Source of the DNA: Candidatus Eiseniibacteriota bacterium | GTDB lineage: Bacteria > Eisenbacteria > RBG-16-71-46 > JABDJR01 | Assembly: GCA_963783375.1 (NCBI GenBank) | Contig: CAWANH010000028.1 | Span: 1,248,001 to 1,312,000 of the forward strand | DNA length: 64,000 nucleotides | Direction of reading: 5' to 3' | In this document: piece after piece, positions 5,461-39,892 of the stretch | Layout: the number at the start of each line of letters is the position of its first letter | Position numbering within the stretch: position 1 is the first letter of the stretch | The notes under the pieces: generated by a model | Seen by the model: the letters and a program-made list of their open reading frames with translations, nothing else | Told to the model about the DNA's origin: nothing | The model's database searches: none | Program-made: the position numbers and the translations under genes

Positions 5461-8400
5461 ATGGCCCGACGCCAAGTGACCATGGACGGCAACGAAGCCG
5501 CCGCCTACGTGGCCCACCGAACCAACGAAGTGATCGCGATTTACCCCATCACCCCCTCCTCGGCCATGGGGGAGCTCTCCGATGAGTGGAGCGCCCGCGG
5601 CCAGAAGAACATCTGGGGGACGGTTCCCCAGGTGGTGGAGATGCAGTCCGAGGGCGGCGCCGCGGGGGCGGTGCACGGGGCGCTCCAGGCGGGGTCGCTC
5701 ACCACGACCTTCACCGCCAGCCAGGGGCTCCTCCTCATGATTCCCAACATGTACAAGATCGCCGGGGAGCTCACGAGCACGGTGTTCCACATCGCCGCCC
5801 GCTCGCTCTCCGCCCAGGCGCTCTCCATCTTCGGCGACCACTCCGACGTGATGGCCGCCCGCTCCACCGGTTTCGGGATGCTGTTCTCGAACTCGGTGCA
5901 GGAGGTGATGGACTTCGCGCTCATCTCCCAGGCGGTGACACTGGAAGCGCGGATCCCCTTCCTCCACATCTTCGACGGCTTCCGCACCTCCCACGAGGTC
6001 CTCAAGATCGAGGTTCTGGACGAGGAGGACATCCGGGCGCTGATCGACGACGAGCTGGTCCGGGCCCACCGCCTCCGGGGTCTCTCCCCCGACCGTCCCT
6101 TCGTCCGCGGCACCGCCCAGAACCCCGACGTCTACTTCCAGGCCCGCGAGACCGTGAACCCCTACTACCTGGCCCTTCCCGAGATCGTGGAACGGACCAT
6201 GGAGCGGTTCGAGAAGCAGGTCGGACGCCGGTACCGGCTCTTCGACTACGTGGGCGCGCCGGACGCCGAGCGGGTCATCGCGCTCATGGGTTCGGGGGCG
6301 GAGACCGCCGAGGAGACGGTGAACCACCTGACCGCGGAGGGGGAGAAGGTCGGGCTGATCAAGGTCCGCCTCTACCGGCCGTTCGCGGTGGAGCGGTTCC
6401 TGGCCGCCCTGCCCAGGACCGTCAAGACCATCGGGGTGCTCGACCGTACCAAGGAACCCGGCGCGAGCGGGGAGCCGCTCTACCAGGATGTGGTGACCGC
6501 GGTGAGCGAGGGCATGATGGCCGGGTCCGCGCCGTTTGCGACCTTCCCGCGGGTGGTCGGCGGCCGCTACGGGCTTTCGTCCAAGGAATTCACCCCGGCC
6601 ATGGTGAAGGGGCTCTTCCAGGAGCTCTCCAAGCCGGCGCCCAAGAACCACTTCACGGTGGGGATCGTGGACGACGTCACCCACACCAGCCTCTCCTGGG
6701 ACCCCGGCTTCAACATCGAGCCCAAGGAAGTCACCCGGGCGCTCTTCTGGGGACTCGGTTCCGACGGCACGGTGGGGGCCAACAAGAACTCCATCAAGAT
6801 CATCGGCGAGGAGACCCCGTTCTACGCCCAGGGCTACTTCGTCTACGATTCCAAGAAGGCCGGGGCGAGGACGGTGTCCCACCTCCGGTTCGGCCCCAAG
6901 CCGATCCACAGCACCTACCTGATCGGCAAGGCCAGCTTCGTGGCCGTCCACCAGTTCGGCTTCCTGGAGCGGTTCGACACCCTGGCCCAGGCCGAGGAGG
7001 GGGCGACCCTGCTCCTCAACAGCCCCTACGGCCCGGACGAGCTGTGGGAGAAGCTCCCGCGCACCGTCCAGGAGACGATCATCCGGAAGAAGCTGAAGCT
7101 CTACATGATCGACGCCTACGGGGTGGCCCGGGAGAACAACCTGGGGGTGCGGACCAACACCATCATGCAGACCTGCTTCTTCGCCCTGAGCGGGGTGCTT
7201 CCGCGGGACGAGGCCATCACCAAGATCAAGGAAGCGATCAAGAAGACCTACGGGAAGCGGGGCGAGGCGGTGGTCAAGATGAACTACGCCGCGGTGGACG
7301 CGGCCCTGGCCCACCTCCACGAGATCGCGGTCCCGGCCACCGCGGAGAGCGCGATCGAGCTGCCTCCGGTGGTGGCCGCCGAGGCCCCGAAGTTCGTCCG
7401 GGAGGTGACGGCGCGGATGATGGCCGGCGAGGGGGACCTCCTCCCGGTGAGCGCCCTCCCCGCCGACGGCACCTACCCGAGCGGCACCACCCAGTGGGAG
7501 AAGCGGAACATCGCGCTGGAGGTCCCGGTCTGGGAAGAGGATATCTGCATCCAGTGCGGGAAGTGCGTGATCGTCTGCCCGCACTCGGTGATCCGCTCCA
7601 AGGTCGTGGAGGAGTCGGCCCTGGCCGGGGCCCCGGCCGCCTTCAAGACCACCGAGGCCCGCTGGCGGGAGCTCAAGGGACAGAAGTACACCCTCCAGGT
7701 GGCGGTGGAGGACTGCACCGGGTGCAGCCTCTGCGTCGAGGTCTGCCCGGCCAAGGACAAGAGCCAGGTGGGGCGGAAGGCCATCAACATGAAGTCCCAG
7801 CTCCCGATCCGCGAGCAGGAGCGGGCGAACTGGGACTTCTTCCTCGGGCTACCCGAGGTGGATCGGACCGGCGAATCGTCCGGGCTCCGCTTCACCAAGC
7901 CCAAGGACGTGCAGCTCCTGGATCCCCTCTTCGAGTTCTCCAGCGCCTGCGCGGGTTGCGGCGAGACGCCCTACCTGAAGCTCCTGAGCCAGCTCTTCGG
8001 GGAGCGGAGCCTCGTGGCCAATGCTACCGGGTGCTCGAGCATCTACGGTGGGAACCTCCCCACCACCCCGTGGTCGGTGAATCGCCACGGCCGCGGGCCG
8101 GCCTGGAGCAACTCGCTCTTCGAGGACAACGCCGAGTTCGGGATGGGGATGCGGGTGGCGCTGGACAAGCAGGTCGAGTACGCCCGGGAACTCCTGGAGC
8201 GGTTGAAGGGGGACGTGGGGCCGGACCTGGCCGAGGCCGTCCTCGGCGCCGACCAGTCCGCCGAGTCCGGGATCGAGGCCCAGCGAAAGCGGGTGGGGCG
8301 GTTGAAGGAGGCCCTGGCCGGCCGGACCGACGGGCCTTCCCGGGATCTCATGAGCCTGGCTGACGTGCTGGTGAAGAAGTCGGTGTGGATCGTGGGCGGC

Positions 8401-31420: not shown

Positions 31421-32092
31421 CTAGTGCCGGGGGCAGGAGCAGTCGGTGGAGTCGCCCTTGTCGAGGTAGAAGTCCAGGTGGTTGGCGGCCTCGCAGGCGG
31501 CCAGCGTCGCGGCGGCAATGGCAAAGCAGACCGCCGCGCCGAACATTCCGACGATGGGGCCGATGGAGATGAGGCAGTTCTGGAGCGCGGCGTTGGCGAT
31601 CGCCGCGCAGGCCATGTCTCCCGCACCGTGGGCGATCCCCTTGAGGATATCCTCGGCCCCGCCGCGGTCGATTTCATTCACGTCTCCCCGCCAGAGCACC
31701 TGCCCGGTGGCAGCGTTGGTCAGGGTGCCGGTTGCGGGGTCGACTCTCGCCCCGCCCAGGTAGCGGCCCCGATCGGTGACCAGGTTGACGGTAAGGGCGC
31801 CTCCCTCCTCCTCCCCGATCACCTTGAGCACGCGGCCCAGGCGGGAATGCCCGAAGACGCCGACCTGGATCGGACCGCTCCAGCGTCCGGGGACGGTCCG
31901 GTTCACCGCCCGGACCGCGCTCTGGGCCACGGTCGGGGTGAGTCCGGGGCCGGTGATGACGTCGGGCCCGGTGGCGTAGAGCGCCTTGATCCTCCCCCAG
32001 GTGGAGGGGACCGAGGCCTCGACCGGAACCACCGCGAATCCGATGCTGGTGACGAGGAGGAAGGAGGCGACGAGAGAACGATGGCGACGCAT
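31421..32092 (-). CDS. Secreted protein with a Cys/Ala/Gly-rich bacteriocin-like C-terminus
   Basis: AAGGA RBS, signal peptide, STWGRIKALY motif; six Cys in the last ~65 aa. Confidence 0.7.
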   Translation of the reverse strand: MRRHRSLVASFLLVTSIGFAVVPVEASVPSTWGRIKALYATGPDVITGPGLTPTVAQSAVRAVNRTVPGRWSGPIQVGVFGHSRLGRVLKVIGEEEGGALTVNLVTDRGRYLGGARVDPATGTLTNAATGQVLWRGDVNEIDRGGAEDILKGIAHGAGDMACAAIANAALQNCLISIGPIVGMFGAAVCFAIAAATLAACEAANHLDFYLDKGDSTDCSCPRH

Positions 32093-32305
32093 GATGAGGG
32101 TTTCCTTTCTTCGTGCGGACGGAAGAAAGGACGGGTCGACGGTTCCGCCATGCATGGAGGATGCCGGGCCGGTGCGACGCCCACAGGCGGGTGACCGGTC
32201 CGGCCGGAGGCGCGCGGGTGACGAGGCCTCGTCGCCGGGCGCACGGAATCCGGCGAAGGCGCCGGCGCCGCCGGTTCGGCGGACGTCGCCTCGTCGTGAG
32301 AACGG

Positions 32306-32400
32306 CGGGGGATCGAGCTTGCCGCCGGGGGACCGGATCGGCGCGGCCGCCGGCTCGTCCTGAATGGGCCGGGGGATTGAGCTTGCCGCCGGGGGACCGG
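32306..32400. repeat. Two 31-bp direct repeats separated by 33 bp
   Basis: CGGGGGAT(C/T)GAGCTTGCCGCCGGGGGACCGG at 32306-32336 and 32370-32400. Confidence 0.85.
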
Positions 32401-32417
32401 TGGTGTCTGATAGCGAC

Positions 32418-33467
32418 ATGATTCGACGTGTGGTCATCCCCGACTTCGGGGACGTGGACGTGCTCGAGGTGCGAAGCGGTCCGCCCCCGGCGCTCGAACC
32501 GGGAACGGTGCGGGTGCGGGTGGCCGCGGCCGGGGTGAACTTCGCCGACCTGGTGATGCGGATGGGGCTCTACCCCGAGGCGCCCCCGCGCCCCTTCGTC
32601 CCCGGCTACGAGGTGTCGGGGGTACTGACCGAGGTCTCCGAGGAGGCGGCGCGGGCCCGGCCGGAGTTGAAGCCCGGGCTCCGGGTGATCGCGGGGACCC
32701 GGTTCGGCGGCTACGCGGAGGAGATCGTGACCCCACCGGGGAAGGTGTTTCCGCTCCCCGCGGACTGGTCCTTCGAGGAGGGGGCGGCCTTCCCGGTGAC
32801 CTACATCACCGCGTGGTTCGCCCTGGTGGCCATGGCCCGGGTCCGGGCGGGGGACTACGTGCTGGTGCACGGGATCACCGGCGGGGTGGGCTCGGCCGCG
32901 CTCCAGATCGCCCGGGCGGCGGGGGCGCACGTGGCCGGCACCTGCGGCGGGCCGGAGAAGGCGCGGATCGCCGAGAGCTGGGGCGCGGAGCGCGGGATCG
33001 ACTACCGGAGCGAGCACGTGCCCGCGGTGGTTCGCGCCTGGGCCCCCGACGGCGTGGACATCGTGCTGGAGTCCCGCGGGGGGAAGGGGCTTCGCGAGAG
33101 CCTGGCGTTGCCCAAGCCGACCGGGCGGGTGGTCACCTACGGGGTGAGCGAGATGGCCTCGGGGCGGAAGCGGAACTGGTTCACCGCTGCCCGCGCCCTC
33201 TGGCCGTTCCTGTGGATGAACCCCCTCAAGCTCATCCAGCGGAACCACGGACTCTTCGGCCTGAACGTGCTCGCGATGTGGGGGGAGGACACGGTGATGG
33301 ACTCGGCGATCGCCGGCTTGCGGGCGGGGGCGGAGTCCGGCGCCTACCGCCCCGTGCTCGACCGCACGTTTGCGTTGGCCGAGGCCCCGGCGGCGCACCG
33401 ATATCTGCACGAGCGGCGGAACCTGGGGAAGGTCGTGCTCACGACCGGGGTGGAGATGCCGGGCTGA
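32418..33467 (+). CDS. Zinc-independent MDR oxidoreductase (VAT-1/quinone reductase-like)
   Basis: GVNFAD, PGYEVSG, TYITAW, GGVGSAA and RNLGKVVL. Confidence 0.9.
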   Translation: MIRRVVIPDFGDVDVLEVRSGPPPALEPGTVRVRVAAAGVNFADLVMRMGLYPEAPPRPFVPGYEVSGVLTEVSEEAARARPELKPGLRVIAGTRFGGYAEEIVTPPGKVFPLPADWSFEEGAAFPVTYITAWFALVAMARVRAGDYVLVHGITGGVGSAALQIARAAGAHVAGTCGGPEKARIAESWGAERGIDYRSEHVPAVVRAWAPDGVDIVLESRGGKGLRESLALPKPTGRVVTYGVSEMASGRKRNWFTAARALWPFLWMNPLKLIQRNHGLFGLNVLAMWGEDTVMDSAIAGLRAGAESGAYRPVLDRTFALAEAPAAHRYLHERRNLGKVVLTTGVEMPG

Positions 33468-34731: not shown

Positions 34732-36042
34732 ATGCTCAAGAACTACATCCTCGACACCAACGTGCTGCTCCACGACCCGGGATCCCTGGTCTCGTTCCAG
34801 GACAACACGGTCATCGTCCCGATCTACGTGATCGAGGAGGTCGATCACTTCAAGAAGGAGGCCTCGGAGCTGGGGCGGAACGCCCGCGAGGTCTCGCGCA
34901 TCCTCGACCGGTATCGCGCGGAGGGGAACCTCGCCCAGGGAGTGGATCTCCCCACCGGCGGCCGCCTTCGGGTGGTGATCGATCACGATTACCCGCTCGA
35001 GGCGATGAACGGAAGCCCATCCAAGGTGGACCACGCGCTTCTCTCCCTGGCGCTCAAGATCCGGGGGGAACGGGAGGGGGAGCTGCCGGTGATCCTGGTG
35101 ACCAAGGACACCAACCTCCGGATCAAGGCGGACGCTCTCGGCATCAAGGCCGAGGACTACGAGACCGGCCGGGTGGACCTGAACGAGCTTTATCGCGGTG
35201 CGGTGGACCTGACCCTGTCGCGCGAACAGGTGGAGGCGCTCCGCGCGGGGGAAACCCTGCCCGCGCCTCCCGGGGACTTCTACCCCAACGAGTACGCCTT
35301 GGCCCTCTCCGGCGGCGAGCCGGTGGTCTCGGCCCTGGCCCGCATCTCGGCCGACCTCGCCGGGCTCCAGCCGCTACACCTCCCCGACCGGCCGGTCCTG
35401 GGGCTGAAGCCCAAGAACAAGGAGCAGCACTTCGCTCTGGACGCGCTGCTGGACCCCGAGGTGAAGCTGGTGACCCTGATGGGAAAGGCGGGAACGGGGA
35501 AGACCATCCTGGCCATCGCCGCCGGACTCCAGCAGGTGGAGGAGCAGGGGACCTACGCGAGGCTCCTGGTATCGCGGCCGATCTTCCCCATGGGACGCGA
35601 CATCGGCTATCTCCCCGGCGAGGTCGAGGAGAAACTCAACCCCTGGATGCAACCGATCTACGACAACCTCGAGTTCATCCTCGAACGCCAGCGGGGGCGC
35701 AAGGGGTTCACGATCGGGAAGCTCCTGGCCGGCGGCACCATCGGCATCGAACCCATCACCTACATACGGGGAAGGAGCATTCCCGGGCAGTTCCTGATCG
35801 TGGACGAGGCGCAGAACCTCACCCCGCTCGAGGTGAAGACCATCATCACCCGCGTGGGCGAGGGGACGAAGATCGTGCTCACCGGCGATCCCTACCAGAT
35901 CGACAACCCTTACGTGGACGCCTCCTCCAACGGATTCAACTACCTGGTGCAGAAGTTCCGCCCCGAAGCCCTGGCCGCACACGTGGAGCTGGTCAAGGGG
36001 GAACGAAGCCTGCTCGCGGAACGCGCGTCGGACCTTCTCTGA
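34732..36042 (+). CDS. PhoH2-type PIN-PhoH ATPase
   Basis: PIN domain (LDTNVLLHDP, VTKDTNLRIKA); GKAGTGKT, RGRS, DEAQN and GDPYQID. Confidence 0.93.
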   Translation: MLKNYILDTNVLLHDPGSLVSFQDNTVIVPIYVIEEVDHFKKEASELGRNAREVSRILDRYRAEGNLAQGVDLPTGGRLRVVIDHDYPLEAMNGSPSKVDHALLSLALKIRGEREGELPVILVTKDTNLRIKADALGIKAEDYETGRVDLNELYRGAVDLTLSREQVEALRAGETLPAPPGDFYPNEYALALSGGEPVVSALARISADLAGLQPLHLPDRPVLGLKPKNKEQHFALDALLDPEVKLVTLMGKAGTGKTILAIAAGLQQVEEQGTYARLLVSRPIFPMGRDIGYLPGEVEEKLNPWMQPIYDNLEFILERQRGRKGFTIGKLLAGGTIGIEPITYIRGRSIPGQFLIVDEAQNLTPLEVKTIITRVGEGTKIVLTGDPYQIDNPYVDASSNGFNYLVQKFRPEALAAHVELVKGERSLLAERASDLL

Positions 36043-36273
36043 GTTTCCCCCGGCGATCCGTGACCACGCTGATCGCTCCACGGGATCTCGCCATCCGCTC
36101 CGGAATTTCCCCCGCGACCCGTGCCGATGGTGATCGCTCCGCAACGCTCCAACCCCCACGTTGAGACTCTCCCCCGCGTCCTGGATGCGAGGCGGGACAA
36201 GGACTTCCGGTGATCTTGCCGTCTCCCGGCGATTCGCGGGAGCGCCGGTCAGGCCGCCAACGGCCCGCCGGAC

Positions 36274-36427
36274 TTCTCAACAGACCCCCCGGCGGTTTCG
36301 CAAATTTTCCGCCGGCCTCCGAACCGACAAGCGCGCATGATGTTGGCTACCATGGGTAGGCGCGCGGCGAAAACCGGGAGGCGGGTTTCTCCACGACCCT
36401 TCCACACTTTCCACAGCCTTATGCACA
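36274..36427 (+). promoter_or_regulatory. Cluster of co-oriented DnaA-box-like 9-mers
   Basis: TTCTCAACA 36274, TTCTCCACG 36387, CCTTCCACA 36398, CTTTCCACA 36407, TTATGCACA 36419, against consensus TTWTNCACA. Confidence 0.6.
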
Positions 36428-36572
36428 CGGGCCGATGGGAGAAAACTCCAAGACACCATGCGGCTTGCGCCGGACGCTTCAATCGGGGCGCGAGATTCCG
36501 GTGCGTTCCGCCCGCAGGCGCCGATTGTTGAGCGCGTTCGGAAGCCATAATGCGCGCATGGAGCGAAACTTT

Positions 36573-36601
36573 TTGACCTGGCTCCGGACCCGCGTTACCT
36601 T
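36573..36601 (+). promoter_or_regulatory. Sigma70-like promoter for the putative ncRNA
   Basis: TTGACC-17-TACCTT; predicted start near 36608. Confidence 0.55.
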
Positions 36602-36607
36602 GGGTTC

Positions 36608-37536
36608 GAGGGTCGTGATCGACCTGTCCGGCACCGACACCCGGCTTTGCCGGGACAAGGTGCAAGAACCCCAGGAGGGGCGGCGATCTCTGCGGAGAAA
36701 GCCAAGGACCTCCGCGGTGAAGACTCCGAAGGGTGCGCCGAGGCAGGCGGCTTGTCCGCCGACCGGAGCGAAGCCCATGGGAGGAGGCGCTCGTGAAGAG
36801 CGAGGCCGCCGCGGGGGGAGATGAACCCCTGGAGGGGAAGAAGCCCAAGGGAGGCACGAGCCGTCACGGCGCTTCGGCGCCGGCACGGCCACGGACTTCC
36901 ACGGAGACCAAACCCCGGAAGGCGGGCGAGGACACTGCTGAATCGAGCGCAGCAGGTCCGCTTGAGCCAACGTCAGGCGGGGAGGACCGAACCGAGAGGT
37001 CCGGACCATGCCGTGGAAGGGGAACCCTTCGAAGGGCGGAATCCCAGGAGCGTACCGGTCTGAAACACGGTCGGAAGGTTGCGGGAGGAACAAGGCGTCA
37101 GGAGGGTGCGAAACCCTGGAGACGCAGCGTACCCGGGCGAGGTAAACCCGGGGAAGTCGCTTCCCGCCTCCGGAAACGCTGTAGGGAGACAAACCCTGGT
37201 GAGGCGTGTGTCGCCGAGAGGCGGTGCGCGGCCCGGTTCGGTCAAACTCCGAAGGAGAGCGGAAGTCCAGGAGAGGCTCGCGACAACTTTCTCACGATGA
37301 CCGTCGCGACGGCGGGCACCGGAAGGCCTTCGGCGGGGCGTTAAAGCGACCCAGGTCCGAAGGAAGCGCGGAACCGATGACCGCGCTACGGATGCCCGAG
37401 GCAACCTCTGAAGGATGCGTAACTCCACGGGAGGAGGCGTTGTCGGGGTGACCCGGCTTCGCAGTCGATCCGGCGAGAAGTCTCAGAAGGGGAAACGGAC
37501 AGGCGGCGGCCCTCGTTTTTCTTGTAGCCAGCCCTC
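36608..37536 (+). ncRNA. Putative large (~930 nt) modular structured ncRNA
   Basis: No credible ORF. End-to-end pairing, more than 15 helices, GNRA/UUCG/T-loop caps, G-U-rich stems favouring the + strand, and a repeated internal module. Confidence 0.7.
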
Positions 37537-37825
37537 CCAGGGGGTCCGAAACCTCGGATCTCCGGCGCGAGGAGCCGGAAGCCGCCGCCAAGGTGCGCCG
37601 CCGACTCTCCCACCGCGCGGCGGCGCCGAGCGCGTCGCTCTCCCGGGTGCCGATCCGTCCTCAGGCACCCGTCTATCCGGTCCCGCCCGGATTTGCCGTC
37701 CGCGCTCCTCGCCCAACCGGCTCGGGCAACCGCCTGCCTGCTCGGCAGGGTCCCGAAACGCCCGCCGAGTCGTCGGCCTTTCCCCTCGGATCACTCCGGT
37801 CACCCCCCCCGCGTCAACGATCCGT

Positions 37826-38374
37826 TCAGCCTTCCCACTCCGGCAGCTCGCCCTCGGGGATCGCCCGCAGAAGTGGGTTCCCCCGGTCGCGCCCCGAGAG
37901 GATCGGCGCGTCGATTCCCCAGGGAACGCCCAGGTCGGGATCGTTCCACGCCACCCCCAGCTCGTCGTCGCCGTCGTAGTAGTTGTCCACCACGTAGGCC
38001 AGGGTGCAGTCGGTGAGGGCCAGGAAACCGTGGGCCACCCCCACCGGCACGAACACCCCCATCGGCTCCTGCTCGTCGAGGTCGATCACCTCCCGGCCCC
38101 CGCGGGTGGGGGAGCCGCGCCGGATGTCCACCAGGGCGATCCGGATCCGGCCGGCCATCGGCACCCAGTAATCGATCTGCCGCCGATGGTAGTGCAGGCC
38201 GCGCAGCACGCCCTCCCGCGAGTCGGATCGGTTGCCCTGGACGGCCTCCCAGTTCCGCTCCGGAAACCACTCCCGGCGGAAGGTTTCCAGGAAACGCCCG
38301 CGCTCGTCGGAGAACGGTTTCAGGACCGCGAACTTGACCCCGCGTATGCGGCTCGACTCCCGGATCTCGATCAT
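37826..38374 (-). CDS. rfbC: dTDP-4-dehydrorhamnose 3,5-epimerase
   Basis: DERGRF, GVLRGLHY, DIRRGSPT, GVAHGF and WNDPDL. Confidence 0.92.
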   Translation of the reverse strand: MIEIRESSRIRGVKFAVLKPFSDERGRFLETFRREWFPERNWEAVQGNRSDSREGVLRGLHYHRRQIDYWVPMAGRIRIALVDIRRGSPTRGGREVIDLDEQEPMGVFVPVGVAHGFLALTDCTLAYVVDNYYDGDDELGVAWNDPDLGVPWGIDAPILSGRDRGNPLLRAIPEGELPEWEG

Positions 38375-38636
38375 GGTTTCCTCCGGCGCCTCGGCGCCGC
38401 CCCCCGCGGCCGCGCCAAGCCCCGACGCCCGGCCGCGGCCCCTGCGCCTCGACCGCGCCAATCTCTGCGGCCGGGGGCCGCGCCGGCCACCGCGGCTCGA
38501 TCGTGTCCGCCGATCCCTGGTACTCTTCAGGAAGGCCGTCACCCCCGCGCTCGCCCGGCGCCCGGCGCCGACGGCCTAACTTTCACTTGAGCAAGCCGTT
38601 ATCATAACAAAGACCGAAACCGCGAGGAGGCGTTCG

Positions 38637-38957
38637 ATGGCACGTTGGGTCGAGGTGGGCAAGGATGGGGATCTCGCCCCGGGAGAATTCAAGCTCGTGG
38701 AGGCGGGGGACCTGGAGCTGGCGCTCTTCAACGTGGAGGGAAAGCTCTGCTGCATCGAGGACCTCTGCACCCACGACGGGGGAAACCTGGTGGAGGGGGA
38801 CCTCGAGGGCCGGGTCGTGACCTGTCCCCGGCACGGGGCCACCTTCGACGTCTGCACCGGCGAGGCGCTGAGCCTCCCCGCGGTGGCCCCCACCCCGGTC
38901 CACGGGGTCCGGGTGCGGGACGGGGTGGTCGAGATCGAGGTCGAGGACGAGAATTGA
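38637..38957 (+). CDS. Rieske [2Fe-2S] ferredoxin
   Basis: CTH...CPRH motifs; AGGAGG RBS. Confidence 0.93.
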   Translation: MARWVEVGKDGDLAPGEFKLVEAGDLELALFNVEGKLCCIEDLCTHDGGNLVEGDLEGRVVTCPRHGATFDVCTGEALSLPAVAPTPVHGVRVRDGVVEIEVEDEN

Positions 38958-38986
38958 CCCGGGGCATTTGATTTCGAGGGAACGTC

Positions 38987-39892
38987 ATGGCAAGCCGCAA
39001 GCAACGACAGATCGCCCTCCTCAAGGTCCTGGCCGCGGCGGCCTGGGCGGACGGACGGCTGGACAACGAGGAAGTGAACCGCATCAAGGAGCTCATGCTG
39101 GCCTACGAGCTGGAGCCCGAGGAGATGCACGGGGTGCAGGCGCTCCTCGAGGCCCCGGTCTCCTACGCGCGGTGCGAGGAGCTGACCCGGGAACTCCTGG
39201 GCATGGTGAGCTCCAAGGGGGAGCGGGAGGTGGTGCTGGAGGAGGTGGAACGGATCTTCCGCGCCGACGGCCGGGTGGACGCCGACGAACGCGAGGTCCT
39301 GGAGGGGCTCAGGGGCGTCATGGACGCCATGAACTCGGTGGACCATTTCATGGGCCGCATCACCGGGGTCTTCCGCCGGGTGTTCGCGGGACGCGAAGCC
39401 GGGTCCTCGCCGGGCGAGCTGAGCGAGTACCTCAAGAACACCGTGCTCCTGCGTCTCGACGACCTCTCCCACGGAGCCTGGCGGGAGGGATTCGACGCCG
39501 AGAGCCTGAACCGGTACACCCTGTTCGGGGCGGTTCTGGGCCGGGTGGCCGACGTGGAGGACGGGGTCTCGGACGAGGAGCTGGCCAAGGTCCGCGCCAT
39601 CCTGGCCGAGCGCTTCGGGATCGAGCCGCCGCTCCTCGACTGGATCGCTCAGGCGGTGCGGGAGGCCGCGTCGGCCCGGATGGACCGCCAGGCGCTCCTG
39701 AGCGAGTACAACCGGATCGCCGACATGACCCAGCGGAAAGAGCTCCTGGACGCCGCCTTCGCGGTGGCCGCCGCCGACGGAACCGTCGGGAAGGCCGAGC
39801 TGGAGGAGCTCCGGCTCATCTCGAACTTCCTCTGGATCGATCGGCGCGACTTCGCCGACATCCGGCGGCCCTGGATGCGGTACGAGGGCTGA
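38987..39892 (+). CDS. Tandem TerB-like domain protein
   Basis: AWADGRLDNEE, ADGRVDADE, DGVSDEE and AADGTVGKAE. Confidence 0.8.
   Translation: MASRKQRQIALLKVLAAAAWADGRLDNEEVNRIKELMLAYELEPEEMHGVQALLEAPVSYARCEELTRELLGMVSSKGEREVVLEEVERIFRADGRVDADEREVLEGLRGVMDAMNSVDHFMGRITGVFRRVFAGREAGSSPGELSEYLKNTVLLRLDDLSHGAWREGFDAESLNRYTLFGAVLGRVADVEDGVSDEELAKVRAILAERFGIEPPLLDWIAQAVREAASARMDRQALLSEYNRIADMTQRKELLDAAFAVAAADGTVGKAELEELRLISNFLWIDRRDFADIRRPWMRYEG

Follow-up and report, generated by a model that had tools for sequence, protein, structure and literature searches.

The window analysed here is a 64,000-nt stretch of DNA from Candidatus Eiseniibacteriota bacterium, and coordinates given without a contig label refer to it. 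The stop codons of phoH2 (36042) and of rmlC (37826, on the opposite strand) enclose a gap of 1,783 nt, the 1.8-kb gap in which an initial annotation had proposed a large structured noncoding RNA. The strings quoted in that annotation were all found in place by a sequence check. The gap holds a free-standing gene for a large folded RNA of the + strand with its own promoter, and the following features were assigned:

34732..36042, + strand: phoH2, encoding a PIN_4 RNase and PhoH helicase (Pfam PF13638 and PF02562), candidate partner of the RNA in this lineage
36407..36427, + strand: two DnaA-type boxes, CTTTCCACA at 36407-15 and TTATGCACA at 36419-27, lying 166 and 154 nt before the -35 element
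36573..36601, + strand: sigma-70-type promoter TTGACC-17-TACCTT (-35 at 36573-78, -10 at 36596-601), with a similar site in relatives
36607..37520, + strand: noncoding RNA of ~910 nt ending in a U5 run at 37516-20, placed by fold, alignment, and contig cover
36607..36630, + strand: 5' strand of the closing helix (partner 37496-37515)
37496..37520, + strand: 3' strand of the closing helix and U-run, from the alignment of relatives

The promoter had been predicted at this site, with a start near 36608, and the prediction was borne out. The RNA runs from 36607, and a TTGACC-17/18-TANNNT promoter was seen at the corresponding position of 11 out of 14 genome loci, with the site of L049 lying further upstream. 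Because the window promoter scores only 8/12 against the consensus, it was missing from the consensus-scan list. The closing helix consists of 36607-16 paired with 37506-15 and of 36623-30 paired with 37496-503, which places the end of the RNA near 37515-20 and not at 37536. Of the 11 loci tested, 10 form this duplex of the 5' and 3' strands, with energies between -35 and -53 kcal/mol; the sequence of G008 there is quite different. The 3' end at 37536 (~930 nt) given by the initial annotation was thus misplaced. The three end pairings proposed with it were not conserved, and two of them involve bases that lie within the U-run or beyond it. Among the four closest relatives, the pairing through 37519-29 reached 5/10, 5/10, 6/10, and 4/10, and that through 37531-36 reached 4/6, 3/6, 5/6, and 4/6. 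In the remaining one, GAGGG at 36675-79 had been paired with CCCUC at 37510-14; the GAGGG near 36676-80 pairs with 36826-30 (5/5 in 8/10) and is part of the first loop module described below.

Compared with shuffled sequences, folding of 36600-37560 gave z-scores of -6.17 on the + strand and -2.92 on the - strand. No Pfam match was obtained for the five overlapping ORFs of the element, and frame-keeping indels (multiples of three) amounted to 56 of 370 against 10 homologues. These results ruled out a protein-coding reading. The RNA element is single-copy in this genome.

Past the U-run, at 37531-37620, hairpins are kept in close relatives (94% in G002), and transcription of the opposing rmlC gene may terminate in this stretch. 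A 338-aa ORF without a Pfam match lies at 31421-32437 on the - strand. No tRNA was found in the window; the genome carries a selenocysteine tRNA.

Fold, domains, and the repeated loop module

RNAalifold on sets of 9 and 10 sequences gave 194 pairs, 85 of which showed two-sided change. In a non-redundant set of 126 sequences (mean identity 55%), to which sequences found with the covariance model R1 described below had been added, 98 mutual-best covarying pairs were canonical, by z-scores uncorrected for relatedness between sequences. All 98 were nested apart from one local register clash, and no pseudoknot was seen among them. The initial annotation had named homologues and covariation among the checks on its reading, and both were found. 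The internal helices that it listed held across 10 aligned genomes, with 36867-82 and 37205-30 turning out to be variable hairpins. Helix 36896-904/37011-19 pairs 9/9 in 7 of the 10 genomes, 37055-59/37070-74 pairs 5/5 in all 10, and 37442-47/37452-57 pairs at least 5/6 in 9.

A hub joins the closing helix, one hairpin, and four domains, and every domain has a module first, then a connecting helix, then a second module:

36669..36837, + strand: domain 1, with module 1 (AGG 36673-75/GGA 36831-33) and module 2 (GAA 36728-30/AUG 36777-79); absent in G008
36844..37036, + strand: domain 2, with module 3 (AAG 36847-49/GAA 37031-33), connecting helix 36896-904/37011-19, and module 4 (GAA 36918-20/AGG 36975-77)
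37042..37187, + strand: domain 3, the basis of model R1, with module 5 (AGG 37046-48/GUA 37181-83), a UGAAAC hairpin at 37055-74, and module 6 (AGG 37100-02/GGA 37118-20)
37194..37492, + strand: domain 4, with module 7 (GGU 37198-200/AGA 37485-87, degenerate here), module 8 (GAA 37251-53/ACG 37427-29), and module 9 (AGG 37269-71/GAA 37410-12)
near 37333-61, + strand: tenth module of the family, in domain 4, which appears in the 126-sequence set and is degenerate in the window
37205..37230, + strand: expansion-site hairpin, holding inserts of 0.5-2.2 kb in some Myxococcota-labelled copies

The module consists of a short helix, a symmetric 3x3 loop of the form 5'-C A N G R-3'/5'-Y G N A G-3', and another short helix, and a conserved AA precedes each module strand by a few bases on its 5' side. 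Counted over 810 cells (9 modules in 90 sequences), the closing pairs were C-G in 713 cells on one side and A-U in 583 or G-C in 139 on the other, the first purine pair was A·A in 664 and G·G in 76, and the second was G·G in 729; the invariance of module 6 in these first 90 sequences is partly circular, since they were found with that pattern. The middle bases of the loop vary freely. In the 126-sequence set, exchange of A·A for G·G was the mutual-best signal at 8 first pairs and 4 second pairs, for example at 37269 (AA 74, GG 40) and at 36675 (GG 86, AA 19). This exchange suggests that the shape of the loop is kept and not its sequence, as at a recognition surface. A strict module descriptor found 6 copies on the + strand and none on the - strand, compared with 0.29 (maximum 4) in 300 shuffles, and no other tile of the genome exceeded 4. 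In 51 homologous loci it found a mean of 5.7 sense and 0.04 antisense copies.

Profiles of the domains cross-matched on the sense strand only, the domain 4 model matching domain 1 in 25 of 89 cases, which points to growth by internal duplication. Adenosines conserved in at least 95% of sequences (36841, 36911, 36970, 37024, 37040-41, 37092-93, 37193, 37264, and 37422) stand at a fixed distance 5' of module strands. The best-conserved positions in the 126 sequences are spread over the repeated modules and not gathered in one core. The family therefore has a nested fold, duplicated domains, and a repeated 3x3 loop in which both purine pairs switch between A·A and G·G. The UGAAAC loop at 37055-37074, which we take to be T-loop-like, is swapped for a short loop in planctomycete-type copies.

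The length of homologues ranged from 0.75 to ~3 kb. The RNA of G008, without domain 1, measures 752 nt, and the body of a copy in G250 (L391, about 5600-7450) looks doubled, with 15 modules. In five Myxococcota-labelled copies examined, the inserts of 0.5-2.2 kb at hairpin 37205-30 were hairpin-rich and noncoding. These inserts (L388 6240-8450, L373 4780-6070, L212, L222, and L216) are rich in CUUCGG-type hairpins and gave no Rfam match. Up to five copies of the RNA gene per genome were found in the Myxococcota-labelled phylum, and copy number that is elastic in these ways, through loss or doubling of domains and through extra gene copies, fits a dosage of sites better than one active site. 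In L187 (G004:C1), at about 1740-1840, the RNA body is absent, and the promoter with the first ~55 nt runs directly into the 3' closing strand; the order is phoH2, one inserted gene, and this body-less remnant, which is a natural deletion or an assembly error.

Distribution, neighbouring genes, and expression

BLAST and profile searches revealed long homologues in 9 other genomes of the same phylum. A 27-base pattern was found in 14 GTDB genomes, all confirmed by the profile, with Eisenbacteria, Myxococcales/Deltaproteobacteria, Acidobacteriota, and Planctomycetota among their labels. Covariance model R1 was built on domain 3, with 94.5% of cells paired and two-sided change in 24 of 37 pairs, and 0 of 500 shuffles came as high. 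The model matched 8/151 genomes of the window's own phylum, 29/151 of the Myxococcota-labelled phylum, 46/107 in the class of one Myxococcota-labelled genome, 19/151 Planctomycetota, 16/17 in one planctomycete class, 1/151 Acidobacteriota, and 1/14 in the phylum of G210. Among the weak R1 matches, 12 of the 13 fetched had a profile match. Metagenome homologues were present on at least 120 contigs, and the 80 fetched whole all matched the profile; 45 weak BLAST matches (E above 1e-4) were left out, and the 21 fetched as loci gave no profile match. The RNA family is thus present in at least four named phyla, its carriers being uncultured bacteria of soil and sediment, and it is nearly universal in one planctomycete class. 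Three metagenome copies (L057, L064, and L123) are more distant and have in common a conserved upstream sequence of ~0.6-1 kb. Searches of phage, plasmid, and IMG/VR sequences returned no homologue of the RNA, a match in IMG/VR (L399) being due to chance, and a phage or plasmid element was rejected on this ground.

No neighbour gene was common across phyla in 51 loci. This result removes a universal neighbour gene from consideration and suggests that the RNA acts in trans. No transposase or integrase was common among the recurring flanking families. A lineage feature of the planctomycete loci L268-L283 is the presence, downstream of the RNA and on its strand, of genes for a PTS EIIA-domain protein and a MoxR AAA protein.

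In 10 of 14 genome loci, including those of the acidobacterium and of G210, phoH2 lies upstream on the same strand. Within the window's own phylum, PhoH2 was present in 14 of 206 genomes, 9 of which carry the whole RNA adjacent to it. G002 has an assembly gap at the place of the RNA beside phoH2, the 5' end of the RNA in G005 lies at a contig end, and the contig of G009 ends there. In G004 the RNA body is gone while phoH2, the promoter, and the closing helix remain, and G068 has a distant PhoH2 with no RNA nearby. The history of PhoH2 was examined in an unrooted tree (no outgroup) of 55 proteins, taking every second Myxococcota locus and 16 of 29 acidobacterial loci. Fifteen PhoH2 proteins of three phyla (13 of the own phylum plus G209 and G210) formed one clade (96/94), as seen without a clade test and with G068 and G210 on long branches. 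This clade was sister to proteins of the Myxococcota-labelled class (97/95 jointly) and stood apart from other acidobacterial PhoH2.

Presence of the protein and of the RNA did not coincide elsewhere. PhoH2 was found in 102/107 genomes of the Myxococcota-labelled class and the RNA in 46/107, and no RNA lay within 1.5 kb of the 31 phoH2 genes checked in that class. In Acidobacteriota the figures were 32/151 for PhoH2 and 1/151 for the RNA. Among planctomycete carriers, full-length PhoH2 was detected in 1 of 11 tested. An obligate partnership is contradicted by the planctomycete carriers without PhoH2 and by the PhoH2 genomes without the RNA. The tie of the RNA to PhoH2 is lineage-limited: PhoH2 ranks first among candidate partners here, and it cannot be the sole partner.

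DnaA-type boxes were counted with a nine-base consensus that we take to be that of the DnaA box. They accumulated upstream of the RNA in three phyla, with a peak of 1.0 per 250 nt versus ~0.07 elsewhere (53 loci). In 51 upstream regions there were 94 loose matches compared with 18.7 in shuffles, and 41 strict matches compared with 0.63. At least one loose match was found in 13/19 planctomycete, 12/18 myxococcotal, and 12/14 other loci, and 13 of 53 anchored loci rows had no box (15 of 53 when a wider interval was taken). The strict motif occurs 28 times genome-wide, with a cluster at C28:778018-778203 directly ahead of dnaA (778573), indicating that it is the DnaA box of this organism. Strict box pairs also lie away from dnaA, at C28:766016-766036 and C28:1349524-1349557. 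Since the gene upstream is not the same from phylum to phylum, the boxes move with the RNA. As judged from sequence, transcription of the RNA is likely to be under DnaA control. An origin of replication was rejected at this site, which has two boxes only and lies 0.5 Mb from dnaA.

Of the 80 metagenome contigs fetched, 69 were 1,400 nt or shorter, the core motif being preceded by a median of 698 nt and followed by a median of 442 nt; the contigs therefore span approximately the RNA itself. We infer that these short contigs are assemblies of RNA libraries. Twenty-four metatranscriptome runs from salt marsh and sediment, picked for holding the RNA and bearing 23 study codes that probably represent few campaigns, held 29-38% of the sampled words. 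In 4 of the 24 runs, the contig depth of relatives summed was 60 to 125,000 in bins of 36614-37519, did not exceed 12.8 over phoH2, and was 0 both in 36010-36613 and in 37520-39000; because these runs had been selected for the presence of the RNA, the zero cover of the flanks counts as no more than a hint. One RNA-library contig spans 36674-37506. Because the depth sums relatives in picked runs, and contigs give neither strand, ends, nor level, high abundance of the RNA as one transcript is likely only. The RNA appears to be strongly transcribed in sediments. Covariation, homologues in at least four named phyla, contigs confined to the element, and the lack of an Rfam match upheld the initial annotation in its reading of a large, unassigned RNA of the + strand with its own promoter; its 3' end and end pairings did not hold, and neither the repeated module nor the link to phoH2 nor the DnaA-type boxes had been noticed in it.

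Proposed function of the RNA and comparison with known systems

We infer the function of the RNA as a whole from its structure, distribution, and surroundings. One loop whose shape is kept, occurring about ten times in elastic number in a trans-acting and probably abundant RNA, is most readily understood as a surface for multivalent docking. At a probability of roughly 45%, we favour a trans-acting RNA that offers multivalent docking to a protein, as a scaffold or a sponge. The ~910-nt RNA folds as a wheel of four domains in which a single purine-pair internal loop recurs nine to ten times, and each of these loops is predicted to be occupied by a single protein molecule, as the Rev element suggests by analogy. 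DnaA likely controls its transcription, and PhoH2 is the candidate docked partner in this lineage; production of the docked protein may be tied to DNA replication. Against this reading, PhoH2 is neither required nor sufficient for the presence of the RNA, and the conserved AA 5' of the module strands could equally dock into the loops within the RNA.

Such internal docking is the core of the main rival, a close but less likely reading: an RNA-only architectural particle like GOLLD and ROOL. The loops would be receptors for junction adenosines (A-minor type), each domain would pack two modules side by side, the RNA would fold or oligomerise without protein, and the inserts would project from its core. 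The at least 95% conserved adenosines at fixed distance 5' of module strands fit this particle, as do the same module-junction-helix-junction-module order in the domains and their sense-strand cross-matches. One hairpin tolerates inserts of up to 2.2 kb, like the linkers of GOLLD and ROOL in the portion of PMC12286853 that deals with them. The same portion describes kissing loops of the GOLLD and ROOL cages, seen as covariation, and A-minor contacts. However, the kissing loops have no counterpart here, where 98 covarying pairs include no pseudoknot; the RNA is also absent from the phages and plasmids searched, and loss or doubling of a whole domain is tolerated.

A dedicated RNA partner of PhoH2 is distinctly unlikely. 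Serving as antitoxin, decoy, or loading platform, the RNA would hold back or direct the ring of this PIN RNase-helicase, a part that a small antitoxin protein plays in mycobacteria. The consulted section of PMC7390352 describes PhoH2 as a hexamer with RNA helicase and RNase activity that has an antitoxin protein in mycobacteria, other PhoH2 lineages have adjoining structured RNAs in the preprint text of 10.64898/2026.10.21.760802, and here the two genes have adjacency and a shared history in three phyla. But genes may move as neighbours with no joint function, full-length PhoH2 is missing from 10 of the 11 planctomycete carriers tested, most PhoH2 genomes have no detectable RNA, and G004 kept phoH2 and lost the RNA body. 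Catalysis by the RNA, as a ribozyme or in the manner of an intron around a six-armed hub, seems very improbable. The size, the central multi-way junction, and the UGAAAC hairpin are reminiscent of catalytic RNAs, yet there is no Rfam match, group II models included, the RNA sits between genes with its own promoter and U-run, its conserved positions are spread over modules, and planctomycete-type copies replace the UGAAAC loop. We give still less credence to a DNA-level or mobile element, or a DnaA-titrating locus in which the RNA is secondary. The upstream DnaA-type boxes, the patchy spread, and the several copies in some Myxococcota would suit it. The element is, however, single-copy in this genome and 0.5 Mb from dnaA, its G-U and purine-purine covariation is on one strand, contigs of RNA libraries cover the element only, and the flanks have no common transposase or integrase.

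The docking reading has a bolder form, which we put forward tentatively and think unlikely to hold in every part: a new RNA class, switched by DnaA, whose ~10 double homo-purine loops would gather a protein machine, here the PhoH2 ring, into a large RNP. If this were true, an abundant RNA hub would link replication state to RNA turnover, and this hub would grow to as much as 3 kb by rRNA-like expansion. The loop is a new recurring 3D motif with unusually clear covariation. The family also provides a natural series of 750-nt, 910-nt, doubled, 3-kb, and deleted forms, with DnaA as a testable regulator and PhoH2, a conserved RNase-helicase, as a testable partner.

Several known kinds of RNA were considered and rejected. 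A kink-turn has a 3-nt bulge followed by invariant tandem sheared G·A and A·G pairs. In the module, the would-be invariant A forms a Watson-Crick pair that covaries (A-U 583, G-C 139) and the loop is a symmetric 3x3, which rejects a kink-turn or box C/D array. Type III toxin-antitoxin RNAs are short tandem repeats upstream of a toxin gene in one operon, each repeat forming a pseudoknot; the window RNA lies downstream of phoH2, has its own promoter, and is nested without a pseudoknot. A divergent housekeeping RNA was excluded by the RNase P, SRP, and tmRNA genes elsewhere in the genome. No 6S RNA was found genome-wide with RF00013, and a divergent 6S is unlikely, as the branched fold is unlike the 187-position 6S model.

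To our knowledge, bacterial RNAs of ~0.9 kb are few, and the studied ones are ribozymes, scaffolds, or cages. A search of the window against Rfam 15 up to E 10 gave no match at the gathering score and four short chance matches (E 1.1-3.9); 8 homologous loci gave none at E<=1, and 8 further loci gave none at gathering. As the initial annotation had supposed, no named family could be assigned, including GOLLD, ROOL, OLE, MISL (in Rfam according to a legend in 10.1101/2024.02.24.581671), group II intron domains, RNase P, and 6S. A literature search, with the supplement of PMC5737381 and the figures and supplements of the COMPASS preprint (bioRxiv 10.64898/2026.10.21.760802) outside its scope, found no description of the RNA family. 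The family is therefore new by Rfam and apparently undescribed.

The COMPASS text nominates structured RNAs beside PhoH2 genes, in 14 clusters 5' and 13 clusters 3' of phoH2 (27 in all), with a 357-nt Bacteroidota motif as the lead, and part of the present family may be among them. Like those RNAs, the window RNA is a long unannotated structured RNA beside a PIN_4-PhoH gene, on its 3' side. Compared by text alone, COMPASS names none of Eisenbacteria, Myxococcota, Acidobacteriota, and Planctomycetota, nor internal loops. Unlike the COMPASS RNAs, the present family is not restricted to phoH2 neighbourhoods, as its Myxococcota and planctomycete copies show.

GOLLD, ROOL, and OLE are likewise large, stand-alone, and covarying, and the linkers of GOLLD and ROOL likewise offer a variable insert site (PMC12286853, same portion). 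The window RNA differs from these three in having no Rfam match, no pseudoknot or kissing-loop covariation, one repeated loop as its building unit, and DnaA-type boxes at its promoter. GOLLD and ROOL are often found in phages or prophages and near tRNAs, whereas the window RNA had no match in phage, plasmid, or IMG/VR searches and no tRNA in the window. CsrB and RsmZ also repeat one motif many times in a stand-alone RNA and provide a model for its possible working. Their repeat is a single-stranded GGA, in contrast to the paired 3x3 internal loop found here, and CsrA was present in 0 of 5 carrier genomes, which ruled out a CsrB-type sponge.

The HIV Rev response element is unrelated in sequence and organism and serves as a structural analogy only. 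According to the passages of PMC4488727 used here, the G-A and G-G pairs that flank a bulged base in this element make its major groove wide enough for a protein helix to enter, and many copies of Rev are assembled on several loops rich in purines. Purine-purine pairs around a free base and several internal loops are common to both RNAs, the pairs being G-A and G-G in the Rev element and homo-purine A·A or G·G in the RNA described here.
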